From: a virus
Lineage: Duplodnaviria > Caudoviricetes
DNA: 25,115 nucleotides
Virus record (IMG/VR): IMGVR_UViG_3300045526_000194
Coordinates: 1 to 25,115 of that record
Strand: one strand, 5' to 3'
In this document: positions 1-19,852 of the stretch, in pieces
How positions within the stretch are numbered: the stretch's first letter is position 1
Layout: every line of letters begins with the position of its first letter
The notes under the pieces: model-generated
Database searches by the model: none
What the model was told of the DNA's origin: nothing
What the model saw: the letters and a program-made list of their open reading frames with translations, nothing else
Made by a program: the position numbers and the translations under genes

Positions 1-526
1 TGGACGGCAACTGTATTACTGTATTGTAGGCTCTGTTCATGTCTGGAACTTCTGAGCCACCATTTTCGTCAAAGTACACCGTATAATTTGAAACTGTCCA
101 TACCGCAGTAAAGGTTAACGTTCCATTAATTGTCCAAGACTGTCCAGCGTTAACGCTATACAGTAAATCTCCAGCAGACGGGTTTCTCCAGTAGCTAAAA
201 GTGTATCCAGATCTTGTTGGTGTTGGTGCGGTTATAACTTGACCCCAAGTTCCGTCAGTTGATGTGGGTGAAACGCTTCCTCCATTTGCGTTCCAGCTTA
301 CGGTGTAATTTATTGCAGTATATTGTGCATAAAGAGTTATATCAGACGGTGGCTGATAAGTATCATTTGCGTTTCCGACAAAAGTTCCTCCAGTTGCAGC
401 GGTGTACCAGCCATTGAAAGTATGATATGTCTTATCCGCACTAGGAAGATTTATTGATGAACCAACATTTACAATATCAGTATTTCTTCCTGCAGTTCCA
501 GTGTTTCCATTATAAGTTATTGTATA
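1..526 (-). repeat. Tandem Listeria-Bacteroides (InlB B-type / Flg_new) protein repeats: two complete plus one partial, about 73 aa each
   Basis: Units start YTITYNGNTG (526), YTVSWNANGG (307) and YTVYFDENGG (85). The complete ones contain (H/Y)TF.(G/Y)W and end TLYAQY / TFTAVW, matching the family consensus. Confidence 0.85.
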
Positions 527-2479
527 GGTTGGTTCTGTAATTGGACCAATTGAAGTTTCTGTATATTTTTTATCACTTGTAGTTCCATTAAATGCAATAA
601 CATATCCACTTATTGTATTTGTCGTTGTTGTTGTAAAGGTATGATCGTAATTTGTGTCTGTCGTAAAAGAATAAGATGATGGATACACAGCTAATTCATT
701 TCCATATTGATCATTTTTTTCAAGGACAAATCTAAATTTGTCAGGTTGATTTGACCAAGTTCCGCTTGTTAGCCTATAAACAGATCCCTTTTTGTTTGGC
801 TGTCCACTAATTAATTGAAATTGTGGAGCAGTTAAATTGACTGGTTTTGCTAAAATTGAAACAGAATTTGAAACTTCTGACCATGGGCTCCAAATTGTTC
901 CTCCTACTGACTGAGAAACATAAAACCTATATTGATTTCCTGGAGAAGGAACCATATTGTTTTTATCTTTATTGCTCGGTCCCCATGTCCATCCTGAAGT
1001 AGTTAATTCTTTGTCATATGTAGAATCTGCTCCGCCGCCTGGTGGGAAAATAGAAGTTGACCAATACACTCTCCATTTTGTTGCATTTGGATGTGCATTC
1101 CAATATATTAAAATATTTGGCTCTGTGTAGGATCCAGTAACTCCAGTTGGTTTTGGTAAGGATATTGGTCCGATTATTGAGTTACTAGAGTATATTGAAT
1201 TTTTTGCTTGACCACTAATATTTTTTGCTAGAACAGAACCTTGTATTCCAGACTGATTTTCAGATAATATAGTATATTCATAGTAATCGTCTGCCGTAAA
1301 AGTTGTAAGCGAAGGATGTGTAACAAGTACGGTGCCAGCTGCATTAATTCTTTCTATAGAATATCTATATTGATTTGGTCCATTAGACCAAGTACCGCTA
1401 TTTAGTCTATATACTGAATCTACGCAAGAAGGATCTCCGCTAATCAGTTCAAAATTTGGAGGAACTTCATTTTCTGGCAAACTTGCTAAAGTTGTAAAAT
1501 TAACTTCTTCATAATAAATGGTTCTGTCTGATATAATCGGTTTATCTTTGTAACCATCTTTTCCTGTAACAGATAATTCCGCTGTATATTCTGTATCTGG
1601 CTGTAGAAGCGTACTTGTATACGGATACAAAACAGTGTTTTGATATGCATATAAGGATATGTTGCTTGAATCTAATGTTACTGTTTCTATAACATTTTCT
1701 TTTAAAATATCTGTAGCTAAATAAATTTTTATTATGTGTGACTCTATATCAGAAGATGCATTAATCGTTCCATTATTAGGTAAAGCATCTAGTGCCCAAG
1801 AAAAAGTTACTCCATCAGCCTGTTCTGTATCTGCTAATGTTGCAAAACTAGATATTTGAAAATCTAATCTTGGTTGAATTCCTGAATGAGAAGCATACCC
1901 TGTTGGACCATAATAATATTCACTTACTTCACCTGGTGGGTTTTCTGCTTCAATTGCAATTCTAAACCAGTATCCTTCTTTTGTATCGGCTTTTGATATG
2001 ACTGGCCTATTTGAAATTGTAGCTGGGAAAAGATCATAATCGTCCGATTCTAAATATTCAGTATATGTTTTTGTGTAAATGCTGCCATCTGTTGGCCATA
2101 TTGTTGTCCAATCTCCACTAGACCCTAATCTTTTTTGAATTCTTATTTTAAACTTATTTGGCTCTTCAGTCCAGCCACCTCTTTGTGCCGCAATTGAAGA
2201 TCCATTTATTGGAGAATCAAATGTTTCAAATCCGTCTGGCCATCTAAATAATAGATCTGGGTAAGGAGATCTTGGGCCTGGAATAGATAATCCACTAAAT
2301 ATTCTTGTCCATATTCCACTACCTTCGTGTCTCCACGCACTTTTTAGTTTTACCCATCCATCAACAGATACACTATTTTCTCCAGGTCCGTTTTTACGCC
2401 ATATGCTTTTAATCTTAATCCAACCATTTATATTATGGGTTCCTGTATCTGTAGGGCTTGCTTTCCTCCACCAGCTCAT
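1..2479 (-). CDS. Large Ig-like/FN3/InlB B-repeat tail adhesin or receptor-binding protein, 3'-truncated by window edge (>826 aa); absent from the ORF track
   Basis: Hand translation from ATG at 2479 (MSWWRKASPTDTGTHNINGWIKIKSIWRK...) stays open to position 1 (...YNTVIQLPS). Contains FN3 signatures (LQPDTEYTAELSV; PGNQYRFYVS...WSPWSE), two copies of an Ig-like unit (ISG..VYRL.SGTWSN.P) and B-repeats (YTVSWNANGG...PTRSGYTFSYW...TFTAVW). Confidence 0.92.
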   Translation of the reverse strand, partial: MSWWRKASPTDTGTHNINGWIKIKSIWRKNGPGENSVSVDGWVKLKSAWRHEGSGIWTRIFSGLSIPGPRSPYPDLLFRWPDGFETFDSPINGSSIAAQRGGWTEEPNKFKIRIQKRLGSSGDWTTIWPTDGSIYTKTYTEYLESDDYDLFPATISNRPVISKADTKEGYWFRIAIEAENPPGEVSEYYYGPTGYASHSGIQPRLDFQISSFATLADTEQADGVTFSWALDALPNNGTINASSDIESHIIKIYLATDILKENVIETVTLDSSNISLYAYQNTVLYPYTSTLLQPDTEYTAELSVTGKDGYKDKPIISDRTIYYEEVNFTTLASLPENEVPPNFELISGDPSCVDSVYRLNSGTWSNGPNQYRYSIERINAAGTVLVTHPSLTTFTADDYYEYTILSENQSGIQGSVLAKNISGQAKNSIYSSNSIIGPISLPKPTGVTGSYTEPNILIYWNAHPNATKWRVYWSTSIFPPGGGADSTYDKELTTSGWTWGPSNKDKNNMVPSPGNQYRFYVSQSVGGTIWSPWSEVSNSVSILAKPVNLTAPQFQLISGQPNKKGSVYRLTSGTWSNQPDKFRFVLEKNDQYGNELAVYPSSYSFTTDTNYDHTFTTTTTNTISGYVIAFNGTTSDKKYTETSIGPITEPTYTITYNGNTGTAGRNTDIVNVGSSINLPSADKTYHTFNGWYTAATGGTFVGNANDTYQPPSDITLYAQYTAINYTVSWNANGGSVSPTSTDGTWGQVITAPTPTRSGYTFSYWRNPSAGDLLYSVNAGQSWTINGTLTFTAVWTVSNYTVYFDENGGSEVPDMNRAYNTVIQLPS

Positions 2480-5400
2480 TTATGCCTTCCTACTTAATAT
2501 AACGTCTCCGATATCAAATGCTCCAGTGCCTTGTTCTCCTCCAGAAAATTGACTTCTATCAGTTTTACCATCTGGATAATTATTTCCAGCATAAAAAAAT
2601 GCACGTCCTAAAGTTATTTCTCCAGTATCTGCATCTTGAACTAGTGTTTTATCTCCAGCAGTTCCATCTCCATTAGCAATAGCATTCAGATACAATTTAA
2701 ATTGTGATGGTCCTAACTTATTTGGATTTACAGTAAGCACATTATTCTCATATGTCATTAACCCACCAGCAAGTCTAAACGAACCAGAACTTTTTGTAGT
2801 ATTTCCAATAGTAGAACTTTTTCCTAATAAATAATCTGAGTCAAAAGATTCAGAAGAACCTAAAAATACATTAGAAGCTACTAAATCTGTCTGCACATTA
2901 AATGTTCCATTTAGGTTTTCTGGTGTAGGAGTGGAGTATGTTAGTTTGCCACCAGCTAATCTGAAAGCTCCAGATGAAGATATATAATCAACATTTCCTG
3001 GGTTTCCACTTCCTGAACTTGGATATGTAGTATACCATAAATCTGGATTCATAAAAAACATATTAGACCCAACAATATTTCCGCCAGCAATTGTTCCTTG
3101 CAAACCGTCTAGTTTAATTTTTACATCATTAAATTGATTTGAAAACGATTGTAAAAATTTACCATTTATTTTCCATCCCTCAGTAATTGTTTTTGTTGTT
3201 GTACTGTATTCTCCAAAATATCCAGCTCTAGCTTCTATTGATCCATATAATGTTGCTTCTTTTGCTATTAGTGACCCGCTATATGTTACTGAAAAATTTG
3301 GACCTGGATTTCCAGTTCTAGATGTTCCAGCCCAAATCATAATATCATTTGCTTGAGGTGTTCCAGTTGGAGCATAAAATCCTACATTTCCAGCTTTGTT
3401 TATGGAATTAGAGTCTATGGTCCAGCCAGCTATTGTTCCTTTATTTGCAATAATTCCGCTTACTGGATCAAGTTGCACATACTTTCCATTAGCTCCTGTT
3501 ATCTGTATCCCAGAAAAACCAAGCAATGGGTTATTTATATCTCCACTTGTATATTTTCCAATTTCAACCTTAGATCCATTTGCGGCATCAATTAATAATT
3601 GTCCTGAATATGTCACTCCGTCTATAGTTCCGCCTATTTCAACATTGCCCAATATTCCAGACGCTGCTTTAATTTCTCCAGATAATTTAACATTTGTAGC
3701 TTCAAGGTCTCCTTGAGTGTTTACTTTAAATTTAGATCCTACTTGTATTTCTCCGCCTAAAACTTTTATATTTCTAGCTATTACAGAGCCTTCTTTAGTT
3801 ACTGAAAACTTTGCATCTTCATTAGCATTAAGTGAATATCCTCCAGCTACACCTCCTCCTGCCCAAAATGCATAGGTGCCGTTTGGTGATAATCCCGTGT
3901 AAGATCCTGTTGTAGCATTTAAAGTATTTTCTATTTTACTATCAGATATAACCCAATTAGCAATCTTAGCCTTTTTTGTTATAAATGTCGCAGTTACTCC
4001 ATTGTCTTCGCCAATAATCTGTGTAGTAGGATTTAATCCATTTTCATCGTTATTATCATACAAGAAGAATCCACGCTTATTAAATACTGCCCTAGCTCCA
4101 GTTAAAACTGGTTCATCATTTGAATCAAGAGTGCCAGCAAAAATAGAACCGTCTGTTTTAATTTTAATTGGATTTTCTATAATTGACATGGCGCCAACAT
4201 CTATTATGCCAACTTTTTGTGCTGCAGACATTGATGCGTTTCCGTCTTCTGATGTCCATTCAGCTTTTACCCAAACATCGTTGCCAGCATTCTGCTCATC
4301 ATAAACTATTACTGGACTAGATTTTGATGAAGCCACTAAAGAATATGTTCCATTTTCTGAAGAGCTTTGATAAACTTTTATTCCTGTTGCTTTTGAGTCT
4401 AGGTTAGAGGAAACTACATAACCATTAGCCATAGCGGTAACAGATATAATTGTTGTTTTGCCATCTAGAGGATTTGGTTTTGTTATAGAAGCTATATTGG
4501 ATATGTTTACCTGAGTAGTATTTTCATTTCTATAAATATCTAAATCTGTTACATATCCTGCAGTAAAAGAAGATGGGCTAAATCCAAACCCGTCTATAAA
4601 TTCAGTTCTAGAGATTTTGACTGAGGTGTTTGCTGAAGCGGACACTCCAGAAACTGTTTTTTCAAAATATTCTGTAGAGCCAGAAGAAGATAAGTGTACC
4701 TTTACATATGTGGGTATGTTTTGTGCAGGCATTGTAAATGAAACAATTAAATCTGTTCCGCTCCATGCTACAGACGGATTTATTATTGGATCTGGTGGCG
4801 TATTGTCAAACTCATATGGGTCAAAAGCTTTTCCTTCTACCACTGGGGAGCTTACAGACTCGCAGCCAGAATCAGATAAGTGATTTAATTTTACATATAC
4901 GGTGTTTAATGTATCTAATGTTATTGACGCAGGACCGTTTCCAGTATATCTTAGTTCCCAGGAATATGGGTTATTGGTTTCTGAAACATAAACTCTGGTT
5001 TCTCTATAAGTTCCATAGTTAGTTGCTGGATCCTGCCAAGAAACTAAAATTCCATTATTTGCACTAATTACAGTTGGCGTCAATCCAGTTGCAGTACATA
5101 TTGGGTCCACATAAACAGGTATATTAAATAAACAATCGTCTGATGATCCGTCTCCATATATACTTGTTATTTTTCCAGTCAATACTGTTTGGAAACTTCC
5201 TCCAAAGTTTGCCATATTGTCTGGCTGAGAAAGTTGCCACCTATACTGATTAACATCTTCTTTAACAGCAAGCGTTGAGAAAATAGGTTCCTCACCCACA
5301 GCAGATACAGTTAATTGAAATAATTTAATTCTATTATCACGTGTCACTCCGTCTGATAAAAACGGCTTTTCAAATGATATGTTTAAATTAGCGTTTGCAT

Positions 5401-5620
5401 CCCATGTTGCTGATACATTTATTGGACATGTTCTACGAGGTGCTGGAGTTGTAAATTCAAAAAAGTCGGAAAACTCGCTATTGCCTTTTTGTTTATCTGC
5501 ATAGACCCAAGCAAATTGAGCCGCATAGTTTGTATTTGGATCTAACGCAGGAACTACTATATCCCAGTATTCGCCGTCTTGTTTTTGAGTAATTCCTAAG
5601 TCTTGATTTTTTTCTGCCAC
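2480..5620 (-). CDS. Tail fibre / central fibre-like minor tail protein (N-terminal FN3/Ig-like domains, C-terminal Gly-rich beta repeats)
   Basis: 1046 aa, GTG start with GGAG 6 nt upstream. LDPNTNY and other FN3-like motifs in the first ~470 aa, then GxIxA / IAGWTI / WAG...FSVT repeats typical of beta-stranded fibre shafts. Lies downstream of the tail-tip genes. Confidence 0.8.
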   Translation of the reverse strand: MAEKNQDLGITQKQDGEYWDIVVPALDPNTNYAAQFAWVYADKQKGNSEFSDFFEFTTPAPRRTCPINVSATWDANANLNISFEKPFLSDGVTRDNRIKLFQLTVSAVGEEPIFSTLAVKEDVNQYRWQLSQPDNMANFGGSFQTVLTGKITSIYGDGSSDDCLFNIPVYVDPICTATGLTPTVISANNGILVSWQDPATNYGTYRETRVYVSETNNPYSWELRYTGNGPASITLDTLNTVYVKLNHLSDSGCESVSSPVVEGKAFDPYEFDNTPPDPIINPSVAWSGTDLIVSFTMPAQNIPTYVKVHLSSSGSTEYFEKTVSGVSASANTSVKISRTEFIDGFGFSPSSFTAGYVTDLDIYRNENTTQVNISNIASITKPNPLDGKTTIISVTAMANGYVVSSNLDSKATGIKVYQSSSENGTYSLVASSKSSPVIVYDEQNAGNDVWVKAEWTSEDGNASMSAAQKVGIIDVGAMSIIENPIKIKTDGSIFAGTLDSNDEPVLTGARAVFNKRGFFLYDNNDENGLNPTTQIIGEDNGVTATFITKKAKIANWVISDSKIENTLNATTGSYTGLSPNGTYAFWAGGGVAGGYSLNANEDAKFSVTKEGSVIARNIKVLGGEIQVGSKFKVNTQGDLEATNVKLSGEIKAASGILGNVEIGGTIDGVTYSGQLLIDAANGSKVEIGKYTSGDINNPLLGFSGIQITGANGKYVQLDPVSGIIANKGTIAGWTIDSNSINKAGNVGFYAPTGTPQANDIMIWAGTSRTGNPGPNFSVTYSGSLIAKEATLYGSIEARAGYFGEYSTTTKTITEGWKINGKFLQSFSNQFNDVKIKLDGLQGTIAGGNIVGSNMFFMNPDLWYTTYPSSGSGNPGNVDYISSSGAFRLAGGKLTYSTPTPENLNGTFNVQTDLVASNVFLGSSESFDSDYLLGKSSTIGNTTKSSGSFRLAGGLMTYENNVLTVNPNKLGPSQFKLYLNAIANGDGTAGDKTLVQDADTGEITLGRAFFYAGNNYPDGKTDRSQFSGGEQGTGAFDIGDVILSRKA

Positions 5621-10176: not shown

Positions 10177-10772
10177 ACCTGCTCCATGCTTAAGTTAACA
10201 TTCCAAAATGATTGAATTCCTCTTTTCACAACTGTAAAGTCACAAGATGTGAATGAGACAGTATACGTATAGTCATCCTGAAGTCCGTAGTCATTTGATT
10301 CAATGATGGACTCTGGATTCCAACCAGATGGATTAATTCTTATCCTAAATACTCCTTGACCTAATTCACTTTCATAAAAAGTTTTTAAATCTTCTGCAGC
10401 CCATCCTCCATCAACAGTTTCATTTCTAAAAGAAGGAAGCATAGACCATGATACTGAAAATATTTTTTTATCTGCTACAAAATATTTTCTTAATGATCCG
10501 TTTGCCATTCTAGAAGATTTTTCAATTCTATTAGTTCCAATATTAAACTCTGATCTATTATGTTCCGAAACTCTTCTAAATATTAGACTTGTAGCACTAG
10601 ATTCTGTTAATTTATTTCTAGATGCAGCAGACTGAGTATAATTTTGCCCACCAGCAGAAGTATTTGTAGTAGCTCCTGGGTACATAAATCCTGTACTTCC
10701 AACTGGCATTGACAACAGATCTTTTGCCTCTATATACAATATAGACCCTTTAGATAATTTTGTAAATGACAT
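10173..10772 (-). CDS. Distal tail (Dit-like) protein
   Basis: 199 aa immediately after the TMP (TAATG overlap). RMANGSLRKY...FSVSWSMLP...WNVNLSMEQV is a lambda gpM/Dit-like pattern; call rests on synteny. Confidence 0.7.
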   Translation of the reverse strand: MSFTKLSKGSILYIEAKDLLSMPVGSTGFMYPGATTNTSAGGQNYTQSAASRNKLTESSATSLIFRRVSEHNRSEFNIGTNRIEKSSRMANGSLRKYFVADKKIFSVSWSMLPSFRNETVDGGWAAEDLKTFYESELGQGVFRIRINPSGWNPESIIESNDYGLQDDYTYTVSFTSCDFTVVKRGIQSFWNVNLSMEQV

Positions 10773-13700
10773 TATACTCTCCTGCCTACGCCAGATGAAA
10801 TTTCTCTAATTCTCATCCTATTGTGTATTGCTTGCGCTACATCTTCTGCACTTAAATCTGTTCCATTAAGTGTAACATTAATATTGTACAAGGCGTTGCT
10901 GGAAGGAGGAGGATTTCCGTATGCTAATTTACCATATTCTATTGGTCCACCAACATTATATTTAGGCATAGTCATTGCATTTGGATATACGGTTCCTGGC
11001 ATATCAAACTTAATTCCTTCTATCTTGCCGCCATCATTTAATGCATATGGAACTCCTGGGACAACTCTTCCGCCTTGAGCTCTATACACAGAAAGCTGAA
11101 CCCTTTGTCCTTCTGAATTTGAAAATATATTTTCTACTTTCATCTGTCCAGACTTTTTAATAGTTCCATCAGATAAACTTATTGCTGGCCTTATTGAGCC
11201 GTTAGGCCCAACAATAAGGAGGTCTCCTACTTTGAGTCTTCCGCCATTTACTATCCTTGAAGCTGATATTTCGGTTAATCCCGCTGTAATTTTTTCTCTT
11301 TGTCCAGTTTTTTGATTTTCAGTGGTTCCAGAAACTGGAACAGTTCCCCTTTTACCTGCATCTTTTACAACAACTCCAGTTGAATTGTTGCCAGATGGAG
11401 CAACTCCTGGATTTTTCCCTAACGCAACAAGCAAGTCTGATCTTAATTTTTCAATTGTGGTTCCGCCAGTAATTGCAGTAGCCTGAGCTTTTGCGGCAGC
11501 AATATCATTTGCAATTATTCCAGCACCAACGTTACTTGGAGAAGTTGTTGTTTGGAATCTGCTTCCTACATATCCAGATGTTGTAGTTGTCATAGGAACA
11601 GCTTTTCCTGATTTGTCAAAGTACTTAGAGAAAGCTGATCTAATTTGCTCAGCTTCGTAGCCTTTTCCAGTTCCAGCAGTTTGAATTTCTTTAATTAATG
11701 CTAATATTTGTTCTTGAGTTGCTGCCATTGCAGCATTTCTTTCAGATTGATCAGCTATTAACTCATTAGATATTTGTGTTTTTACTAACTCGTTGTACCT
11801 TCCGCTAAATCCAGATATTTTACCTGCGGCCTCTGAAGCATCAGCTGCTCTATCTTGAGATGCAGCCATCCTATTCTGTATATCTTCGCCCTTTTTATTT
11901 TTACGTTCGGCATCTGCTTCTAATGGTTTAATCTTAGCTGCAGCAGCATCTTCAATAGCTTTTCTGGCAAGGTCGGCCTGTCGATCTTTAGTTAATTGCT
12001 GCATGCTAATTTGAGCTTGAGCAGCACGAGCCATATCACCATTTGCAATAGCATCTTGATATTCTATTTGAAGTTTTTGTAATTCTAACTGATAATTTTC
12101 TTTGTCTTGAGTTGCGTTTAAAGCTTCAAGCTTCTTATTCTTTTCTTCTTCAATTAATTTAATTTTTTTCTGTATAAGTTTTAATTCTTCTTGAAGATTT
12201 TTTTGTGCGGCGGCAGCATTTCTTTGTGCATTTCTTGATACAGATTTAGCAATTGCATCTAGTTTTAATAATGAAGAACCTACAGTTCCAAATGTATTTG
12301 AGTCTCCTCCAGATTTTGCCATAGCAGAAATTCCACTGTCTATTGCAGATGTAAAACTTGCAATCTTTAATGCTAATCCTGAGTCTATTTGTCTTAAATT
12401 TATATTGACATTACTTGTAAACAATTGCCATTTTGCAAGAATTCCAGCCATTGTGTCTGCTTCATTTGATATCCCAGCTAACAATGGCTGAGTTTTTAAT
12501 AGAGCTTCATATGCATCTGTTCCAATTGCTTGATTCATTCCTGAATTATTTGCACTCATAGAACTTATTGTCATTTGAAATGCTCTATATTGGTCTATTA
12601 ATTCTCCCATAGAATCTTTTGTTCCAATTAACTTATTTTGAGCTTCTTGGAAAGTGTTTATTAATGACTCAAATCCATTTCCTATGTCGCTCTTGTTTCC
12701 TTCTTTAATTGCTCCAAGTAAATTGTTCACAGCAAATTGTGCTGCAGAAGCCTTATCTGTTATTGATCCAAATGTCTGATCTGAAAAAATTCTAAATGAG
12801 CTACTAGCTTTTTCTGAATTTGCTAATGCTCCATAAATCTTTTTATTAGCTTCCGCCGCACTCATTCCAGCTGCAACAAATTGAGCTTTTTGGTTTGAAA
12901 CTAACTGTATTGTTTCTTCTAAATTTTTAGTTCTATTAATAGACTCAATCATTTCTTTGAGTCCTTTGCCTTCTTCTTTAGCCTTTTTCATTTCTTTTAT
13001 AGACATAACGAGACCTGGCATACCAGCACCAGTAGATGCAGCGCCTTTAGCTCCAGCAGCAATAGCATCTTGTCTTTCTTTGACCAACTTCATTGTTTCT
13101 GCTAAATTAAAATATTTAATTCCAGCTTGCTCTGCACCCTTTACTGTCATAGACATTCTCATTGCAGAGTCTTGTCTATTATCATTAGCCTTTTTCCATA
13201 AATTGAGTGCTTCTGCTACTGCAGATATAGCTATTCCTAGTGGCCCAAAACCTTTAGCGAATCTTAGTATTCCAGCAATTACTTTTGATGCAGTTAATCC
13301 AGCCGTTGCAATTCCTCTTATTGCAGTAGATACACCAGTAGCTCCCTTTTTAACAGCATTAAGCATTCTTCCAAACGGTAGGAAACTGGCCACCATACCA
13401 GCAGTCATAACCGCTGTTCCTAATTGAGTTTGTCCCTGACCCATTAATCCCATTCCAGCAACTTGTGAGCCCATCATTAAGGCCATTTGATTAGCTCCGC
13501 CTGCTCTTACTGGAACTTGCATTCCTGCAGAACGCATTTGTTTAGCGCTCATTATCTTATCGCCAACCATATACTCTTTGCGCCTAAATCCTAAAGATCC
13601 TACTTTTCTAGATTGAACTCCTTCTTGTCCTGTCTGTTTCCAATCTCCCACTACTCCAGGTCCAAATAAACTAACTGGCATCATTGTTCCTGGATAAGCT

Positions 13701-16700
13701 CTTGCTGTTACCGCAGCTTGTTCTCTTAATATATCTGATTTGGATGGAACATAATTCATAATTTTATTTTTTATATCTCTTGATTTATTTATTGCATCTG
13801 TAACATAAGATTTCATTCCCCCTGCAAGTGCTACTCCTGAAGCTTTAAATGATGCCGCTGCATATTTAGCGGAAGCTAAACTTTGAACTGCTAAAGCATT
13901 CATTCCTTGTTTTAAAACAACTCCAGCATTTTTAATTGTAGCCTGCATATATTGTGCTTGCATGGCAATTTTATTAGTGAATGGATCTATCATTGAGCTT
14001 CTAAGATAAGCGCCAGGGTTATAAAAACTTGTAGTTCCTTGTCTAACTGCTTCTCTGCCGAGTCCTGTAGTTAATCCTTGTTGTCCATAAATTTGATGAG
14101 ATGCAGCACGTGATCTTTGTGCCTCTAATTCTATTGCTCTTTTTTGACGTTGCTGCTCTTCCCATTTCTCTCTTGCTGCAGGGTTTCCTGGCCTTCCATA
14201 ACTTCTTCTTCCAGAAACAATTCTTCCTCCGCCAATCATTCCTCCACCATTAAATGCTGGGGCTGCATGGACTTTTTGATATTTGTTCCAATTAACTTTC
14301 ATGCCATCTTCAAGTCTTCCAAGCATTGCAATATAAGGAGCTCTATCTGATTCTGGCAAAGATTCTATAAATGCTTTAAGCTTAGGATGCATTTTTTTCA
14401 TGGCTGATTTCATTTTGGCGCCATATTGTCTAGGAGACATTCCTGCGGCAATTTGAGATGTATTATATGCAAAATCTTTACGTGCGCCTCCTCTGACTGC
14501 AAGCAAGTTAATTAAAGCTTGCTTCTCCATGGAGTTCATTGATTCTGCATATGCAGTATTCATAGATGCTCTTGGAAATACTCCAGCGGGACCAACATCA
14601 GCTAACACGTTTCCAAATACATTAGATTTTGATAAATCTTTGTTACCCATTAGCAGAGATGCAATTGTTTGTCTTATCATTTGATCTTCAGTAAACTTAG
14701 TTCCTCCAGCAGAAAATTTAGGATCAAATTTAGATTCTAATCCTAATAATTTGCTTTTACCTGATGGATCGTATGGATTAGAAATTGTTCTTGGCACTTG
14801 AACTGGTGAATCTAGGCCAAACACTTCTCTTGACATTCTAGTTCCATACATTTCTGCCTTCGCACTTATTTCATTTGGAACACCCTTAAAAAATACTAAT
14901 TCTCCATTATCATTTTTGTATACGCCTGAGACGCCAGGTATTGGATAGCTTTTCCCAGAACTTGGAACAATTTGATGACTGTATGAAGCAACTGGCATAC
15001 CTGCAAAACTTCCTAATGCATTTTTAGAACTTAGTTGTTTTACGTTTGCTAATACCTTAAGCATTTTTTCTGGTGAAAGTAAGGTTAATCCATAATTTTT
15101 TCTATTTCTAGATATAGATCCTCCTGGAACTGGTCCACCCATATTTGCAACCATTTTTGCAATAAGCATATTTTGTCCAGTTAACGTTGGCAATAATCCA
15201 GAATATCTAGAACTCAACATCCTGCCTACTGAGTTTTTTGATTTAGGATTAAGTAATTCCATAAAAATTTGAGACCAGGACATTCTGCCTCTTCCGCCCT
15301 TTAACGCAGAAAGTCCTTTTACTAAAACATCTTTTTGAATTTTAGCATTTGGAGAAAGAATATCTTTTGTGCCTGGAAGTTTAGACAAAACTCTATTTAC
15401 TGATGAGGCAACTGCTGTACCTTGATATGCATATTGATTTGCCACAACTCCAGTAATTCTTCTAAACTCTGCAGCTTCTTCTGCAGTTAACGGCGCTCCT
15501 CCTAATCCTGATTTTAATAAATTTTCTAAATGACCTGGGGCCTTGAACAGTTTAGCCTGAAGTTCAGCTCTCATAAAATGTGATTTATCAATTGATGTAG
15601 TTGATCCAGATAATAAAAACGCTCTTTCCAACAAATCTACTTGTGCGCCATTTGGCCTTGTTACTGTCCCAAGACCAGAAGCTTCTAAATTTGATCTAAA
15701 TGCTGCTCTAAAATCTTCTCCTCCAAAATTTGCAGCTGCTGCAGTTTTAATTTTGGGATCGTATTTTACCGCTTTAGACTCTCCAATATTTCCAGAACCA
15801 ACATATGCTTTTATTAAATTTGGATACTTTCTTGCTAATTTAATTAATTGAACATTTCTTGCTCTTGTATACTCAGTAGTAAAATCAAGTCCAGGATTTT
15901 TCTTTACTCTTTCCATTGCATACTCTGTTGCTTCAGCGTGATGTTGTGACGCAATTATTCTAGCTTCTTCAGGATCCATTCCAGTTAATTTAGTAAGCAT
16001 GGTTGCGTTATAAGCAACATTATTTGCAGCATCTACATCTGTAAAATTTGGAGAATTTAAATGTTTTGCATAAGCTGACATCATATTTATGTCATTGCCA
16101 TAGCTAAATGTGCTTCTCATTATTTGTCCGCCAAAATTATATCCATTATTAGCAGCATGTACGGCTGCGTACAAAACTGGATCTTCTTGTATTTTTGGTC
16201 CGTATACAATTTCTCCTGGAGTTAATGCTGCTGTAATTTCTCCACCAGGATTATAAGCTTTTACTTTTCCGCCCTTATTATATGTTGATGCAACTACAGC
16301 AGGATCTGTTATAAATGAATTGTTTGAATCCATAGATGCAGATTGATTTAATACATAACCACCAACTGGGACTCTGCCCAATCTATCATCATAATTAATA
16401 GATGTATCTCCAGAAACTGTAGTTTTGCCTGGTCCAAATGTCTCTATATTACCAAAATGAGTACTTGATGAATTTATCGGTCCTCCCAATTCAAACTTAG
16501 GTAATTTTGTTGTTTGAATACTGTAAGGAGCTCCAAATGTTCTGACTCCACGAAGTCTTCCAAACTCTTCCATAACAGCTCTGTTTGCTTCTTTTTTGTA
16601 TAAATCTCTTAAAGTAAACTGTCCGTTTGCATCTACTACTGGCTGATTCATTAATGGAGCTTTTGTAAAATCAATTGTTCTTCCTCTAGATGCTGCATAT

Positions 16701-19189
16701 GCTGCAATATCTGCTTGAAGTTGTGCCTCCATTTGTGCATTTATTGCCATAATTTCAGCTCGTGCCTGCTCTGCGGTTATTTTTCCTGCTCTAAGTTGTG
16801 CAACAATTGCTGCAGATTGTTGTGCTGCATTATCTGCCACAGATGATGTTAATGGCAAAATGTCATCAAATGTACTTAATAAATCTGCGCTTACCGTACC
16901 GCCTAAAGATATAGTCTTTTTTAAAGCGGCAACTTCAGCTTCTGTTTGCATTGCTAATGTAGAAAGCAGAGCGTGGTATCTTGCTGCCTCGTTTGCAACA
17001 ATACCTGTAGAAACTCCTTTTACTGTAGTAAGTCCTGGAATATTTGGAAGTCTGTCGTGCATGTATATTTGTGGAGTCCTGCCAATTTTTTGATTAACAG
17101 GTAGCGCTCCTGGAACTCCACCTAAAAATGTTGCTGGATTATCAGGATCTCTTGGATTAATATGAGACATGGCTCTAGTGTTTTGTTCTCCAACATATGG
17201 ATCATTAGGATCAACAATTCTTCTTAATGGAGACATTACAGGGCTTCCAGATACAGTTGTTACTGCTGGATTAACTGGAATAGTTCCTTTAGTCATGGCT
17301 GATTGCAAGCTCATGTAATCTGAAATTAATTTAGTTAAGGCACCGTGTAAAACTTCTGCTGCTGCTGCGTCTCCATAAAAAGATTTCTCAACCATTTGTG
17401 CAGCTTTTTCAGTAGCTATAATTTCTGGAGTAAGCATTTTCCATCCAGAAGCTCTTTGGAAAAATGCTCTTAGTTGTACAACACCTTTAGTAATATACCC
17501 AAAAAAGTTAGCAAGCACACCAGTTAGCATGATTATAGGGCCTATTACTGCTGTGAAGCCACCCAAATAAGTTACAGCTTTTTTAATTGGTCCAGGAAGA
17601 TTATTAAAAAAGTCTAAAACTTTTGTAAATGCATTAATAAATTTAGTTGCTACTCCAAGGAACTCTTCACCAACATCAGCTAAGCTGGCTCTTAATCCCT
17701 CTATTGCTCTTCTGTATTTACCAGAAGCTGACTCTGTTACAAGTGTTAATTCTCGACTAGCAATTCCAGCAAGCTGTTCTGCATTTGCTTTCATCAAATC
17801 CATAACTTGCAAAGTTTGCGATCCTGACTTTCCAAGGTTATTAAATAATGCTGACATACGAGCAAATTGGAATTTACCAAACATCTGTTCAAGTGCTCTG
17901 GCTTTGCTTAACGGATCTAATCCTTCTAGTGCTTTTTGTAAATCTAAAATCATACCAGTTGTGTCGCCAGTATTTTTTTGAACTAATCCCATTATGTCAA
18001 TTCCAAAATCTGACATAACTCCTATTGTTTGTTTTGTAGGATTAATCATGGACGCCAATCCTGATTTAAGTGCATTTGCAGCTTCAGATGCACTAACTCC
18101 ACCTTCACGCATTGCTGTCAAATAAAGAGCTAGATCTTTTACGTCTCCACCTAGTTGCTTAACAACAGTACCCGCTTTGGGAATTGCTTCAACTAAATCG
18201 TTTAGGGTAGTTGAAGTTTGGTTTTCTACTGCGTTTAAAAAGTTGATTGATTCTGTCAATTGCTGAGTGTTAGATTTAAATGCTGTTTGTATTGCTAGAG
18301 TTGCTTTCATTGCTTCTTGACGATCTACTTCACCTAAAACTGCTAGCCTTGTTGTTTCTTTTAATGATGATAAAAGCTGATCTCCTTGTTGTCCTGTAGC
18401 TGCTATATCCGCTGCCAACCCAATGGTTTCTTTAAAAGAAACTCCCATGGCAGAAGATAATTCTTTTGCTGTTTGAGTTACATCTTGTCTTATTTTCTGT
18501 AAATCTGCTGAAGCTGTACCAGATATATCTCCATAAACCTTAACTAATCTTGTTAGCTCTTGGTCTGCCTCTCTAAATGCTTTTGCTGCTTGAGATCCAA
18601 ACATTGCCAATGGAACTGTTAATCCTACGGTAAGCTGTCTACCTGCCCATTGAGTATTTTTACCCCAATTAATTAATGATGTAGAACCTTCTAACAATGC
18701 ACGATTCATAATTTGCATTTCCATACGAGCTAACTGTGCACTATTTTTAACCGCATCAAGTCCTCGTGGAATCATTACATTGTATTGCATTAATCCTTGA
18801 GCATTTCTGCCCAGAGGTTGCAAAACGGAGTTTTGTAACATTACTTGCTCTTTAGCGAGCTCTCTTATTAATCCCTTTTGAGTTGTTGCATGAGTTCTAA
18901 ATGTTTGGAAATAATCTTTTAATTTTAATCTACCAGCATCTAACTGTTTTCCAAATTTATCTACATCTGATTGTAAATTTACAAAATGACTAGAGTAATA
19001 TCCACTTCCAGTTAATGTATCTCTAAATAAATTATTTGCTACTTTTGTAGCTGAAGCAATTGATTTATTAGAAGCAAGGAGTTCTCTCTGTAGTTGCTGT
19101 AAACTAGCCGTAGCCCTGTGTACTTCAGACACAAGGCTTGATAAGTCAGCTTTGGCGACTATACTAGTTACAATTTGTTCGTCAGCCAT
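10772..19189 (-). CDS. Tape measure protein (TP901-family core) with internal cargo domains
   Basis: 2805 aa directly after the frameshifted chaperone. N-terminal WAGRQLTVGLTVPL...EAMKATLAIQTAF...NAVENQTSTTLNDL core, Ala/Gly-rich helical segments, hydrophobic stretches near aa 540-570 and 1900-1990, and a coiled coil in the C-terminal part. Confidence 0.95.
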   Translation of the reverse strand: MADEQIVTSIVAKADLSSLVSEVHRATASLQQLQRELLASNKSIASATKVANNLFRDTLTGSGYYSSHFVNLQSDVDKFGKQLDAGRLKLKDYFQTFRTHATTQKGLIRELAKEQVMLQNSVLQPLGRNAQGLMQYNVMIPRGLDAVKNSAQLARMEMQIMNRALLEGSTSLINWGKNTQWAGRQLTVGLTVPLAMFGSQAAKAFREADQELTRLVKVYGDISGTASADLQKIRQDVTQTAKELSSAMGVSFKETIGLAADIAATGQQGDQLLSSLKETTRLAVLGEVDRQEAMKATLAIQTAFKSNTQQLTESINFLNAVENQTSTTLNDLVEAIPKAGTVVKQLGGDVKDLALYLTAMREGGVSASEAANALKSGLASMINPTKQTIGVMSDFGIDIMGLVQKNTGDTTGMILDLQKALEGLDPLSKARALEQMFGKFQFARMSALFNNLGKSGSQTLQVMDLMKANAEQLAGIASRELTLVTESASGKYRRAIEGLRASLADVGEEFLGVATKFINAFTKVLDFFNNLPGPIKKAVTYLGGFTAVIGPIIMLTGVLANFFGYITKGVVQLRAFFQRASGWKMLTPEIIATEKAAQMVEKSFYGDAAAAEVLHGALTKLISDYMSLQSAMTKGTIPVNPAVTTVSGSPVMSPLRRIVDPNDPYVGEQNTRAMSHINPRDPDNPATFLGGVPGALPVNQKIGRTPQIYMHDRLPNIPGLTTVKGVSTGIVANEAARYHALLSTLAMQTEAEVAALKKTISLGGTVSADLLSTFDDILPLTSSVADNAAQQSAAIVAQLRAGKITAEQARAEIMAINAQMEAQLQADIAAYAASRGRTIDFTKAPLMNQPVVDANGQFTLRDLYKKEANRAVMEEFGRLRGVRTFGAPYSIQTTKLPKFELGGPINSSSTHFGNIETFGPGKTTVSGDTSINYDDRLGRVPVGGYVLNQSASMDSNNSFITDPAVVASTYNKGGKVKAYNPGGEITAALTPGEIVYGPKIQEDPVLYAAVHAANNGYNFGGQIMRSTFSYGNDINMMSAYAKHLNSPNFTDVDAANNVAYNATMLTKLTGMDPEEARIIASQHHAEATEYAMERVKKNPGLDFTTEYTRARNVQLIKLARKYPNLIKAYVGSGNIGESKAVKYDPKIKTAAAANFGGEDFRAAFRSNLEASGLGTVTRPNGAQVDLLERAFLLSGSTTSIDKSHFMRAELQAKLFKAPGHLENLLKSGLGGAPLTAEEAAEFRRITGVVANQYAYQGTAVASSVNRVLSKLPGTKDILSPNAKIQKDVLVKGLSALKGGRGRMSWSQIFMELLNPKSKNSVGRMLSSRYSGLLPTLTGQNMLIAKMVANMGGPVPGGSISRNRKNYGLTLLSPEKMLKVLANVKQLSSKNALGSFAGMPVASYSHQIVPSSGKSYPIPGVSGVYKNDNGELVFFKGVPNEISAKAEMYGTRMSREVFGLDSPVQVPRTISNPYDPSGKSKLLGLESKFDPKFSAGGTKFTEDQMIRQTIASLLMGNKDLSKSNVFGNVLADVGPAGVFPRASMNTAYAESMNSMEKQALINLLAVRGGARKDFAYNTSQIAAGMSPRQYGAKMKSAMKKMHPKLKAFIESLPESDRAPYIAMLGRLEDGMKVNWNKYQKVHAAPAFNGGGMIGGGRIVSGRRSYGRPGNPAAREKWEEQQRQKRAIELEAQRSRAASHQIYGQQGLTTGLGREAVRQGTTSFYNPGAYLRSSMIDPFTNKIAMQAQYMQATIKNAGVVLKQGMNALAVQSLASAKYAAASFKASGVALAGGMKSYVTDAINKSRDIKNKIMNYVPSKSDILREQAAVTARAYPGTMMPVSLFGPGVVGDWKQTGQEGVQSRKVGSLGFRRKEYMVGDKIMSAKQMRSAGMQVPVRAGGANQMALMMGSQVAGMGLMGQGQTQLGTAVMTAGMVASFLPFGRMLNAVKKGATGVSTAIRGIATAGLTASKVIAGILRFAKGFGPLGIAISAVAEALNLWKKANDNRQDSAMRMSMTVKGAEQAGIKYFNLAETMKLVKERQDAIAAGAKGAASTGAGMPGLVMSIKEMKKAKEEGKGLKEMIESINRTKNLEETIQLVSNQKAQFVAAGMSAAEANKKIYGALANSEKASSSFRIFSDQTFGSITDKASAAQFAVNNLLGAIKEGNKSDIGNGFESLINTFQEAQNKLIGTKDSMGELIDQYRAFQMTISSMSANNSGMNQAIGTDAYEALLKTQPLLAGISNEADTMAGILAKWQLFTSNVNINLRQIDSGLALKIASFTSAIDSGISAMAKSGGDSNTFGTVGSSLLKLDAIAKSVSRNAQRNAAAAQKNLQEELKLIQKKIKLIEEEKNKKLEALNATQDKENYQLELQKLQIEYQDAIANGDMARAAQAQISMQQLTKDRQADLARKAIEDAAAAKIKPLEADAERKNKKGEDIQNRMAASQDRAADASEAAGKISGFSGRYNELVKTQISNELIADQSERNAAMAATQEQILALIKEIQTAGTGKGYEAEQIRSAFSKYFDKSGKAVPMTTTTSGYVGSRFQTTTSPSNVGAGIIANDIAAAKAQATAITGGTTIEKLRSDLLVALGKNPGVAPSGNNSTGVVVKDAGKRGTVPVSGTTENQKTGQREKITAGLTEISASRIVNGGRLKVGDLLIVGPNGSIRPAISLSDGTIKKSGQMKVENIFSNSEGQRVQLSVYRAQGGRVVPGVPYALNDGGKIEGIKFDMPGTVYPNAMTMPKYNVGGPIEYGKLAYGNPPPSSNALYNINVTLNGTDLSAEDVAQAIHNRMRIREISSGVGRRV
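14255..15088 (-). other. HipA/PI3-4-kinase-like atypical kinase domain embedded in the TMP (aa 1368-1645)
   Basis: Ordered motifs: GVSGVY (Gly-rich loop), VFFK1435, AKAE1446, LLMGNKD1518LSKSN1523, LAD1531VG, followed by a helical C-lobe. Motif recognition only. Confidence 0.6.
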
Positions 19190-19190
19190 T

Positions 19191-19852
19191 TTACTCCCTG
19201 GAGTAACCTAATCCCATTCCGATTCCAAATCCAGCGTCTTGTGCAAAACTTCCTTGGAGTGAAACTACATCTTCTCCACTAGCGTTTATGCCAAGAGCTT
19301 TTCTTTTTATGTCGTCAAAAGATTTACTCTTTTTATTTTCTGCTCCATCATCAAGTTCTATGCCCTTTAATGATGCTGCAAATTTTCTCTGGTCATGCTC
19401 CTTCTTATGCATAGATTCTAGCGTCTGAAGAAGCTCAGGCATTGATAAATTTTCTTCTAACTCTTCGTAATTCTTCCAATGCCCAAGAAGAAATACTTCG
19501 CCTAGTAAAGCGGCTAAGTCTAGTTCTGACCAGCTAGAACCGCTGCCGCTATTAGGTTTGGGTCGTCCATCTTTATTCCACCGCAAACTTCAAGAATTCG
19601 GTTAATAGTTGGAACATCCAAAGCTTCCTCAAGTTTTTCCATATCAGCAACTAGATCTGGCAATTGAGTTTGCAATGCTACTCCGCATGCCTCAACTAAC
19701 ACACCTAGTGTTGCAGTTTCATCTTGAGAATCTTGTACTTTCTTTACAACTTCCATGAACTTACGAAGTTGCTTAATAGATAATGGTTTTAATTTAACTC
19801 TAGCACCATTTTGTAATTCAATTTCTTCTACATCGTATACTGTTGTAGCCAA
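19191..19852 (-). CDS. Tail assembly chaperone, frameshifted long form (gpGT-like, about 220 aa)
   Basis: 99 codons of the G frame up to C CCA AAC, then 121 codons in the -1 frame (PNSGSGSSWSELDLAALLGEVF...GLGYSRE), ending 1 nt before the TMP ATG. Confidence 0.9.
19520..19852 (-). CDS. Tail assembly chaperone, short form (gpG-like)
   Basis: 110 aa, TTG start with strong AAGGAGG SD, between the major tail and TMP genes. Confidence 0.9.
   Translation of the reverse strand: MATTVYDVEEIELQNGARVKLKPLSIKQLRKFMEVVKKVQDSQDETATLGVLVEACGVALQTQLPDLVADMEKLEEALDVPTINRILEVCGGIKMDDPNLIAAAVLAGQN
19556..19562 (-). other. Programmed -1 ribosomal frameshift slippery heptamer C CCA AAC
   Basis: Minus strand GAC CCA AAC CTA is an X XXY YYZ heptamer correctly phased in the G frame, and the -1 frame is open to 19191. 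Confidence 0.9.

Follow-up and report, generated by a model that had tools for sequence, protein, structure and literature searches.

The polyvalent proteins described by Iyer et al. 2017 combine kinase, GNAT, ART, zincin and lysozyme domains in one virion-linked polypeptide, which was proposed to be injected and processed; they are packaged in the capsid or fused to MuF or portal proteins (PMC5512222). Tape measure proteins (TMPs) also carry cargo. T5 pb2 is cut after R1127, which separates a C-terminal piece reported as muralytic (PMC10038345). A cytoplasm-acting RNA polymerase lies in the N-terminal half of the very long P23-45 TMP gp96 and is optional among its relatives (PMC10770324), and mycobacteriophage TMPs contain embedded variable peptidoglycan hydrolases (PMC1796659). 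In actinobacterial contractile injection systems, Sle1-type effectors have a TMP-derived scaffold with exchangeable functional domains (PMC13277306). Here we analyzed a siphovirus head-tail module on a 25-kb fragment, IMGVR_UViG_3300045526_000194, which encodes a TMP of 2805 residues in which repeated linkers bracket two unrelated blocks. The whole stretch of 25,115 nucleotides is referred to as the window.

Like the polyvalent proteins, the window TMP joins biochemically unrelated domains in a single polypeptide, and its gene lies among those for virion morphogenesis. Its carrier, however, is the tail TMP, and the main text on polyvalent proteins contains "tape measure" 0 times and "linker" 0 times (PMC5512222). 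The polyvalent-protein kinase is described there without a C-terminal subdomain, whereas the window kinase keeps a CtkA/HipA-like lobe. T5 pb2 is cut at R|AEGG, and the module that follows aligns with the window sequence at R2703, although the window lacks the His of the T5 module. The main text on T5 pb2 reports one cut and one small piece and no internal exchangeable enzyme cassettes (PMC10038345). P23-45 gp96 carries one fixed enzyme, and repeated joints or an allele series are not reported in the main text (PMC10770324). Relatives of the window TMP have embedded wall hydrolases like those of mycobacteriophages, and Streptomyces BE/BK phage TMPs have M23 domains; the cargo of the mycobacteriophage and Streptomyces TMPs, however, is wall hydrolases only, and the kinase block of the window had no match in cultured phages. 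The Sle1-type effectors belong to a bacterial injection system with a toxin-antitoxin example and not to a phage tail ruler (PMC13277306). Wall hydrolases and one polymerase carried in TMPs are already published, as are single TMP cuts. Searches of open-access main texts found no description of repeated joints with exchanged cytoplasmic enzymes in a TMP.

We propose, with a probability of about 0.5, that the window TMP is a tail-borne polyvalent protein that would be cut at T5-type joints and ejected piecewise, freeing a predicted kinase and a likely nuclease in the host.

Linkers and exchange of the blocks between them

The TMP open reading frame (ORF; 10772-19189, minus strand) matched PF10145 at residues 239-438 (E 2.9e-29, Pfam) and TMP families in PHROGs. 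It lies between the tail chaperones and the distal tail genes, as expected of a siphovirus tape measure protein, and the gene order around it is that of Streptomyces phages Kenrey and LukeCage. The nearest cultured TMPs are those of Streptomyces BE/BK-type and Gordonia phages (~34-36% identity). Its features are as follows.

10772..19189, minus strand: tape measure protein, 2805 residues (PF10145, TMP PHROGs, Kenrey/LukeCage synteny)
16493..19189, minus strand: conserved N-terminal TMP scaffold, residues 1-899, hydrophobic segment at residues 538-567 (61-88% identity to 62 representatives; hydropathy)
16097..16495, minus strand: joint module 1, F899-G1031, GG...D...GE.V module (motif copies F899, Y970 and Y979; linker 1 at its end)
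16097..16141, minus strand: linker 1, YNFGG...YG, residues 1017-1031 (left boundary of block-1 swapping; the T5 register predicts a cut after Y1017)
15149..16096, minus strand: block 1, 316 residues, 1032-1347, hypervariable swapped cassette (likely His-Me-finger, HNH-like, nuclease; His1204 at 15578-15580, Asn1265 at 15395-15397)
15089..15148, minus strand: linker 2, ANMGG...YG, residues 1348-1367 (right boundary of block-1 swapping; a cut is predicted after A1348)
14255..15088, minus strand: block 2, 278 residues, 1368-1645, predicted optional atypical kinase fold of CtkA/MavQ/PI4K-II/HipA type (K1435, E1446, D1518, N1523, D1531)
14195..14254, minus strand: linker 3, FNGGG...YG, residues 1646-1665 (predicted cut after F1646)
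11084..14194, minus strand: central TMP region with a Gly-rich hydrophobic segment at ~residues 1970-1989 (segment cluster in most representatives; hydropathy)
10988..11083, minus strand: C-terminal module RAQGG... at R2703 (homologous to the mapped T5 pb2 cut site and the sequence that follows it; further cassettes here in relatives)
10916..10960, minus strand: last linker copy, YNVGG...YG, residues 2744-2758 (precedes a 61-residue C-terminal piece)

The initial annotation of this DNA had described three related linkers, starting at 16141 (Y1017), 15148 (A1348) and 14254 (F1646), that bracket the blocks of 316 and 278 residues, and all of these coordinates and lengths were right. It had also named shorter copies at F899, Y970, Y979, A1153, R2703, L2717 and Y2744. 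Each was found in place, but A1153 (ANFGG) sits within block 1, where a GG occurs nearby in 3/38 aligned rows. A1153 was rejected as a linker; it is not conserved and is probably a chance look-alike.

The motif was strongly enriched over 60-residue local shuffles. N-x-G-G occurred 8 times in the window TMP vs 1.4 expected (0/2000 shuffles reached 8), and N-x-G-G...YG matched 5 times vs 0.08 expected (0/2000 shuffles reached 3). For comparison among relatives, 198 loci were fetched, 43 through the kinase block and the best 80 each through the N-terminal scaffold from two collections, a set biased toward close relatives and enriched for the kinase. A complete TMP was present in 137/198 loci; 81 were distinct (2077-4130 residues), and these were reduced to 63 representatives, the window included. 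Automatic segmentation missed some linkers, so counts of segment clusters are rough. The fixed pattern [YF][NA]xGGx[IV], written after the motifs had been seen, matched 195 times in the 63 representatives vs a local-shuffle mean of 1.8, with 0 matches in the first 880 residues; a looser pattern had 1-2 matches there in 38/63 representatives. Linkers 1 to 3 were kept with their YG in 35-36 of the 36 kinase-bearing TMPs, and in 343 of 350 copies N/A-x-G-G was preceded by Y, F, L, M, R, K or A. Short tandem copies of the motif accumulate at the block borders.

A profile of the joint module (A3), compared with PDB sequences, matched the Douge TMP twice (E 4e-28), 8rk3 (1158 residues, the length of the JBD30 TMP; E 7e-12) and, weakly, lambda gpH (E 0.15). 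The joint module was also present in the Kenrey and LukeCage TMPs. These profile matches indicate that the linker motif is part of an old TMP element. Two short TMPs, L169 and L175, are without clear linkers around slot 1 (the position of block 1) and keep the GG...D...GE.V module.

Slot 1 was delimited in 61/63 representatives (L169 and L175 omitted; three boundaries set by hand). At 35% identity its alleles formed 17 groups; 9 groups were without mutual matches. Between L015 and L014, identity reaches 99% in the scaffold and 96% in the kinase but only 19% in block 1; the corresponding values for L015 and L020 are 97%, 97% and 20%. The scaffolds nearest to that of the window (86-88%) have only 12-30% identity to its block 1. 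When block-1 alleles were compared, identity collapsed within linker 1 and recovered at linker 2. The left change point fell at +6 to +17 of linker 1 in 131/131 pairs and the right one at -5 to +20 of linker 2 in 31/43 pairs, the pairs not being independent. On a quick tree of the N-terminal scaffold (36 rows), each of two block-1 allele types required at least 6 changes across well-supported branches. In two samples, contigs of relatives leave the window match at 16116 (X1) and 16111 (X16), at linker 1. Block 1 is swapped between relatives, and the exchange edges lie at the linkers; such an edge is where homology ends, not the site of strand crossing.

The kinase block was present in 36/63 representatives. 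L061 (N-terminal identity 87%), L078 and L132 are without it, and other blocks take its place in L061, L092/L153 and P0019. Homologous TMPs aligned on the linkers therefore behave as the initial annotation had anticipated, with conserved flanks and inter-linker blocks that vary in identity and number. A broad survey reported that it could not confirm recent exchange of TMP domains (PMC10684548); the present comparison gives evidence for it and points to defined sites where protein cargo might be inserted in non-contractile tails.

An independent contig from another study (run X3) covers 13800-17200 with 52 differences and no gap. An assembly chimera was rejected because this contig spans the whole linker and block region, and the TMP arrangement is natural.

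The coincidence of exchange edges with linkers would also be expected if the linkers were DNA recombination sites, used in repeat-mediated or site-specific shuffling, with the peptide a by-product. A 19-nucleotide repeat family (D2) covers three motif copies at 79-84%. However, linkers 1 to 3 share little DNA beyond codon constraints, both Gly codons of the motif vary synonymously, and no spare cassettes were found outside the TMP (block-1 or kinase matches outside the TMP ORF: 0 in 62 loci, flanks of <=10 kb). An edge at the linker is, moreover, expected from any recombination in conserved flanks. The earlier suggestion that the linkers are recombination junctions thus did not hold at the DNA level, and we consider it very improbable; the exchange may be ordinary homologous recombination in the conserved flanks.

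Polymorphic toxin systems combine cassette recombination, a C-terminal variable toxin, an adjacent immunity gene and orphan cassettes. The window TMP shares the cassette recombination. Its cassettes, however, are internal, and its extreme C-terminal piece is TMP-like. The next tail gene starts ~-135 to +12 nucleotides from the TMP stop in 62/62 loci, which leaves no adjacent immunity gene, and no orphan cassette was found within the flanks of <=10 kb of these loci. In the strict sense, the effector system proposed in the initial annotation is not a polymorphic toxin system.

A likely nuclease and a predicted kinase

Two residues of block 1, His1204 and Asn1265 (block positions H172 and N233), were invariant in 39/39 aligned alleles that are 12-33% identical to the window. 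In the structural model of block 1 (pLDDT 78.7), strands were found at 168-172 and 225-229 and a helix at 230-238, with the His at the end of strand 1 and the Asn on the helix after strand 2. A strand-strand-helix order with His and then Asn is the order of His-Me-finger nucleases. Because the invariant residues follow this order, block 1 is probably a His-Me-finger (HNH-like) nuclease.

Block 1 had no match in Pfam, PHROGs or PDB sequence searches. A wide VIA search gave a best Z of 5.1, on the helical part, and the L093 allele had no usable Atlas match. Foldseek comparison with PDB and viral models returned nothing at E <= 0.001, which weighs against the nuclease assignment. These blank searches show neither absence nor novelty. 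A block-1 profile had 22 matches among 1.84 billion representatives; the five that were inspected were four TMPs and one chance repeat protein (P0032).

An injected nuclease could also be aimed at rival phages or be selfish, cutting co-infecting relatives and spreading its own allele like a homing endonuclease, a role compatible with delivery. Block 1 is far more mobile between backbones than its flanks are, and the X1 and X16 contigs show other alleles joining at linker 1 in the same samples. On the other hand, the nuclease identity of block 1 comes from a motif only, slot 1 also holds the apparently unrelated sequences of the nine groups, and, with the possible exception of L169 and L175, no target form lacking an allele was seen. 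We regard such a target as improbable.

The second block had been called kinase-like in the initial annotation, and structural comparison bore this out. The model of block 2 (pLDDT 83.5) matched CtkA in Foldseek (E 3e-4), with a Z of 10.8 and a root mean square deviation of 4.1 over 197 aligned residues. MavQ (Z 10.2), PI4K-II (Z 10.1) and HipA (Z 9.6) were near-tied with CtkA, and the Atlas neighbours of block 2 agreed with a CtkA/MavQ/PI4K-II/HipA-type fold. K1435, E1446, D1518, N1523 and D1531 were invariant in 34/34 kinase blocks; from the motif, we take them to be the Lys, the Glu, the catalytic Asp-x4-Asn and the metal-binding Asp. The loop reads D-L-S and not the D-x-H of HipA/PI3K. Block 2 had no match in Pfam, PHROGs or PDB sequence searches. 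From the model and its residues, it is predicted to be an optional atypical kinase fold of CtkA/HipA/PI4K type.

The same kinase (46-49% identity) was seen in the more distant TMPs P0005, P0006 and P0007, whose scaffold identity is 36%; in P0005 and P0006 it lies at ~residues 750-1040. A motif look-alike, FSAGG, occurs within the window kinase at residue 1492 (14705-14716, minus strand) without I/V after the GG.

Proposed processing at the linkers and delivery of the blocks

The T5 pb2 cut site reads R1127|AEGG, and a module follows it. A profile of 9 non-T5 copies, including window R2703, matched T5 at 1126-1154 with 10.9 bits; the best of 300 local shuffles reached 3.3 bits. The T5 register predicts that the bond to be cut lies before N/A-x-G-G and not at the GG or YG. 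Thus the homology to the T5 cut site lends real but indirect support to the linkers as cleavage sites.

Lambda gpH has FATGG at 733, within its Gly-rich region, and a piece of ~14 kDa is cut from the Gly-rich region of gpH, with site and catalyst described as unknown in a 2025 paper (PMC12617516). The FATGG/YATGG module of gpH is a candidate for this cut, and the register predicts the exact bond F733|A734. At residues 733-784 of the lambda protein (L199:1043-3604), a module with a weak match to the joint-module profile is flanked by FATGG and YATGG.

In the mechanism that we propose, the whole TMP chain would be unfolded in the tail lumen and held by tail chaperones; an immunity gene would not be needed, because the chain is held in this way. 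During tail maturation, cuts before N/A-x-G-G at Y1017, A1348, F1646, R2703 and Y2744 would yield pieces of ~97, 36, 32 and 112 kDa and small ones, and the blocks would stop at the motif since each requires a processing site of its own. On infection, the first to leave would be the C-terminal pieces, which are cell-wall hydrolases in relatives, and the central piece would form a channel; by analogy with T5 and lambda, the central TMP region is likely the membrane-channel part. Blocks 1 and 2, which are N-terminal to the channel piece, would follow into the cytoplasm, refold, and target host defence or metabolism within the first minutes. Selection from the host or from rival phages would keep block 1 polymorphic. 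If this is true, pre-made and fast-evolving phage effectors would have a general route through the tail lumen in addition to the capsid.

Several observations weigh against delivery by cutting at the linkers. The 9 profile instances were picked after the T5 sequence had been seen, and profile A3, of the other module type, does not find the T5 site. Homology to that site holds for the R2703 C-terminal module only; linkers 1 to 3 share the short core and the YG. A cut at lambda F733 would give ~12.5-12.7 kDa vs the reported ~14 kDa, which is near but not exact. No protease was identifiable in the window with Pfam and PHROGs. An F-x-x-G-G look-alike lies inside the kinase in 18/36 kinase-bearing TMPs, so the motif core alone is not the signal. 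The edges of kinase-allele exchange are less sharp than those of block 1 (9/23 near linker 2). In relatives, the GNAT-, HExxH- and ART-like blocks come after the membrane segment, toward the C terminus, and the cargo is therefore not neatly sorted by compartment. Finally, the P23-45 gp96 polymerase-TMP is found full length in virions, so cargo needs no cut (PMC10770324).

The last point also favours uncut hinges, in which the linkers would be flexible joints or chaperone or unfolding boundaries; the cassettes would be ejected in one chain and work tethered to the membrane channel, and only the last copy, if any, would be cut. The motif is short and Gly-rich, as a hinge could be, and T5 and lambda are each reported with one cut near the C terminus (PMC10038345, PMC12617516). 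However, a hinge would not need the conserved large residue that precedes N/A or the I/V that follows GG, the register matches the T5 cut, and the tandem copies at the block borders likewise speak for more than flexibility. We consider uncut hinges rather unlikely, though far from negligible.

Another arrangement would be a late polyprotein, with the cassettes cut out in the producing cell and acting late, unpackaged, while only the scaffold pieces measure the tail. Packaging of the cassettes is a prediction, and folded domains of 30-36 kDa are unlikely to fit the tail lumen. The ruler, however, must stay continuous during tube polymerisation, and CHAP and lysozyme cargo suit entry. In addition, lambda gpH is reported to be cut after tail assembly, and the T5 fragment to stay in the tail (PMC12617516, PMC10038345). 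We give a late polyprotein little credence.

Beyond the proposed piecewise delivery, a broader and more tentative idea is that X|[NA]-x-G-G could be a general ancient TMP processing signal (T5 R1127, lambda F733, Douge, JBD30). Freshwater actinophages may have multiplied it into a reloadable magazine in the tail lumen, a polyprotein cut to length that would inject wall hydrolases ahead of polymorphic nucleases, kinases and other modifying enzymes, with no immunity genes.

Cargo of relatives and gene context

In relatives, up to ~1400 residues of linker-bounded blocks are inserted near the TMP C terminus. Linker-bounded cargo included CHAP (9/63 representatives), LysM (6/63) and phage tail lysozyme (3/63), and 18 cargo combinations were found among the 63 representatives. 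A C-terminal block of relatives had a weak GNAT match. Polyvalent proteins include a zincin-like metallopeptidase for processing; the corresponding HExxH motif occurred after residue 1700 in 6/63 representatives, though not in the window TMP, with one weak Peptidase_M13 match.

Further linker-bounded blocks were seen in L075:14417-16192, in L016:14435-17164, and in the C-terminal inserts of L048, L087 and L122. They include a second, different kinase-like block and HExxH, GNAT-like and ART-like blocks; the ART, zincin and second-kinase labels were given by eye from motifs and are unconfirmed. The window kinase profile scored the second kinase-like block of L075 at only 0.1 bit, and one of the L075 blocks recurs at 83% identity in L132, which has no kinase. 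In P0019, the kinase slot (residues ~1307-1605) holds another block with R...S-S-W-S...E-x-E, found in three relatives and without a family match; we take this pattern, unconfirmed, to be that of ADP-ribosyltransferases. Many late cassettes (L020, L048 and L122) start with HxGGPVGHxH and carry W-x-x-A-G-L-N-F-V-P-G, without a Pfam match; the latter segment resembles the pre-toxin TG motif.

WhiB genes were present in 5/5 near-complete relatives, and the phage host is therefore likely an actinobacterium. The sequencing runs that hold window DNA are mostly from freshwater, reservoir and wastewater. The idea that runs with 0.69 of words are without block 1 was wrong; block 1 is there, with ~1.5% differences.

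Upstream of the TMP lies one further feature of the tail module.

19191..19852, minus strand: overlapping ORF pair, likely tail assembly chaperones (position as that of the annotated chaperones of Kenrey and LukeCage)

These overlapping ORFs probably encode tail chaperones through a frameshift, as in the Kenrey annotation. At the start of the window, an open-ended ORF of 826 residues with Flg_new repeats (2-2479, minus strand) and an ORF of 1046 residues without a family match (2480-5620, minus strand) are probable receptor-binding or minor tail proteins.

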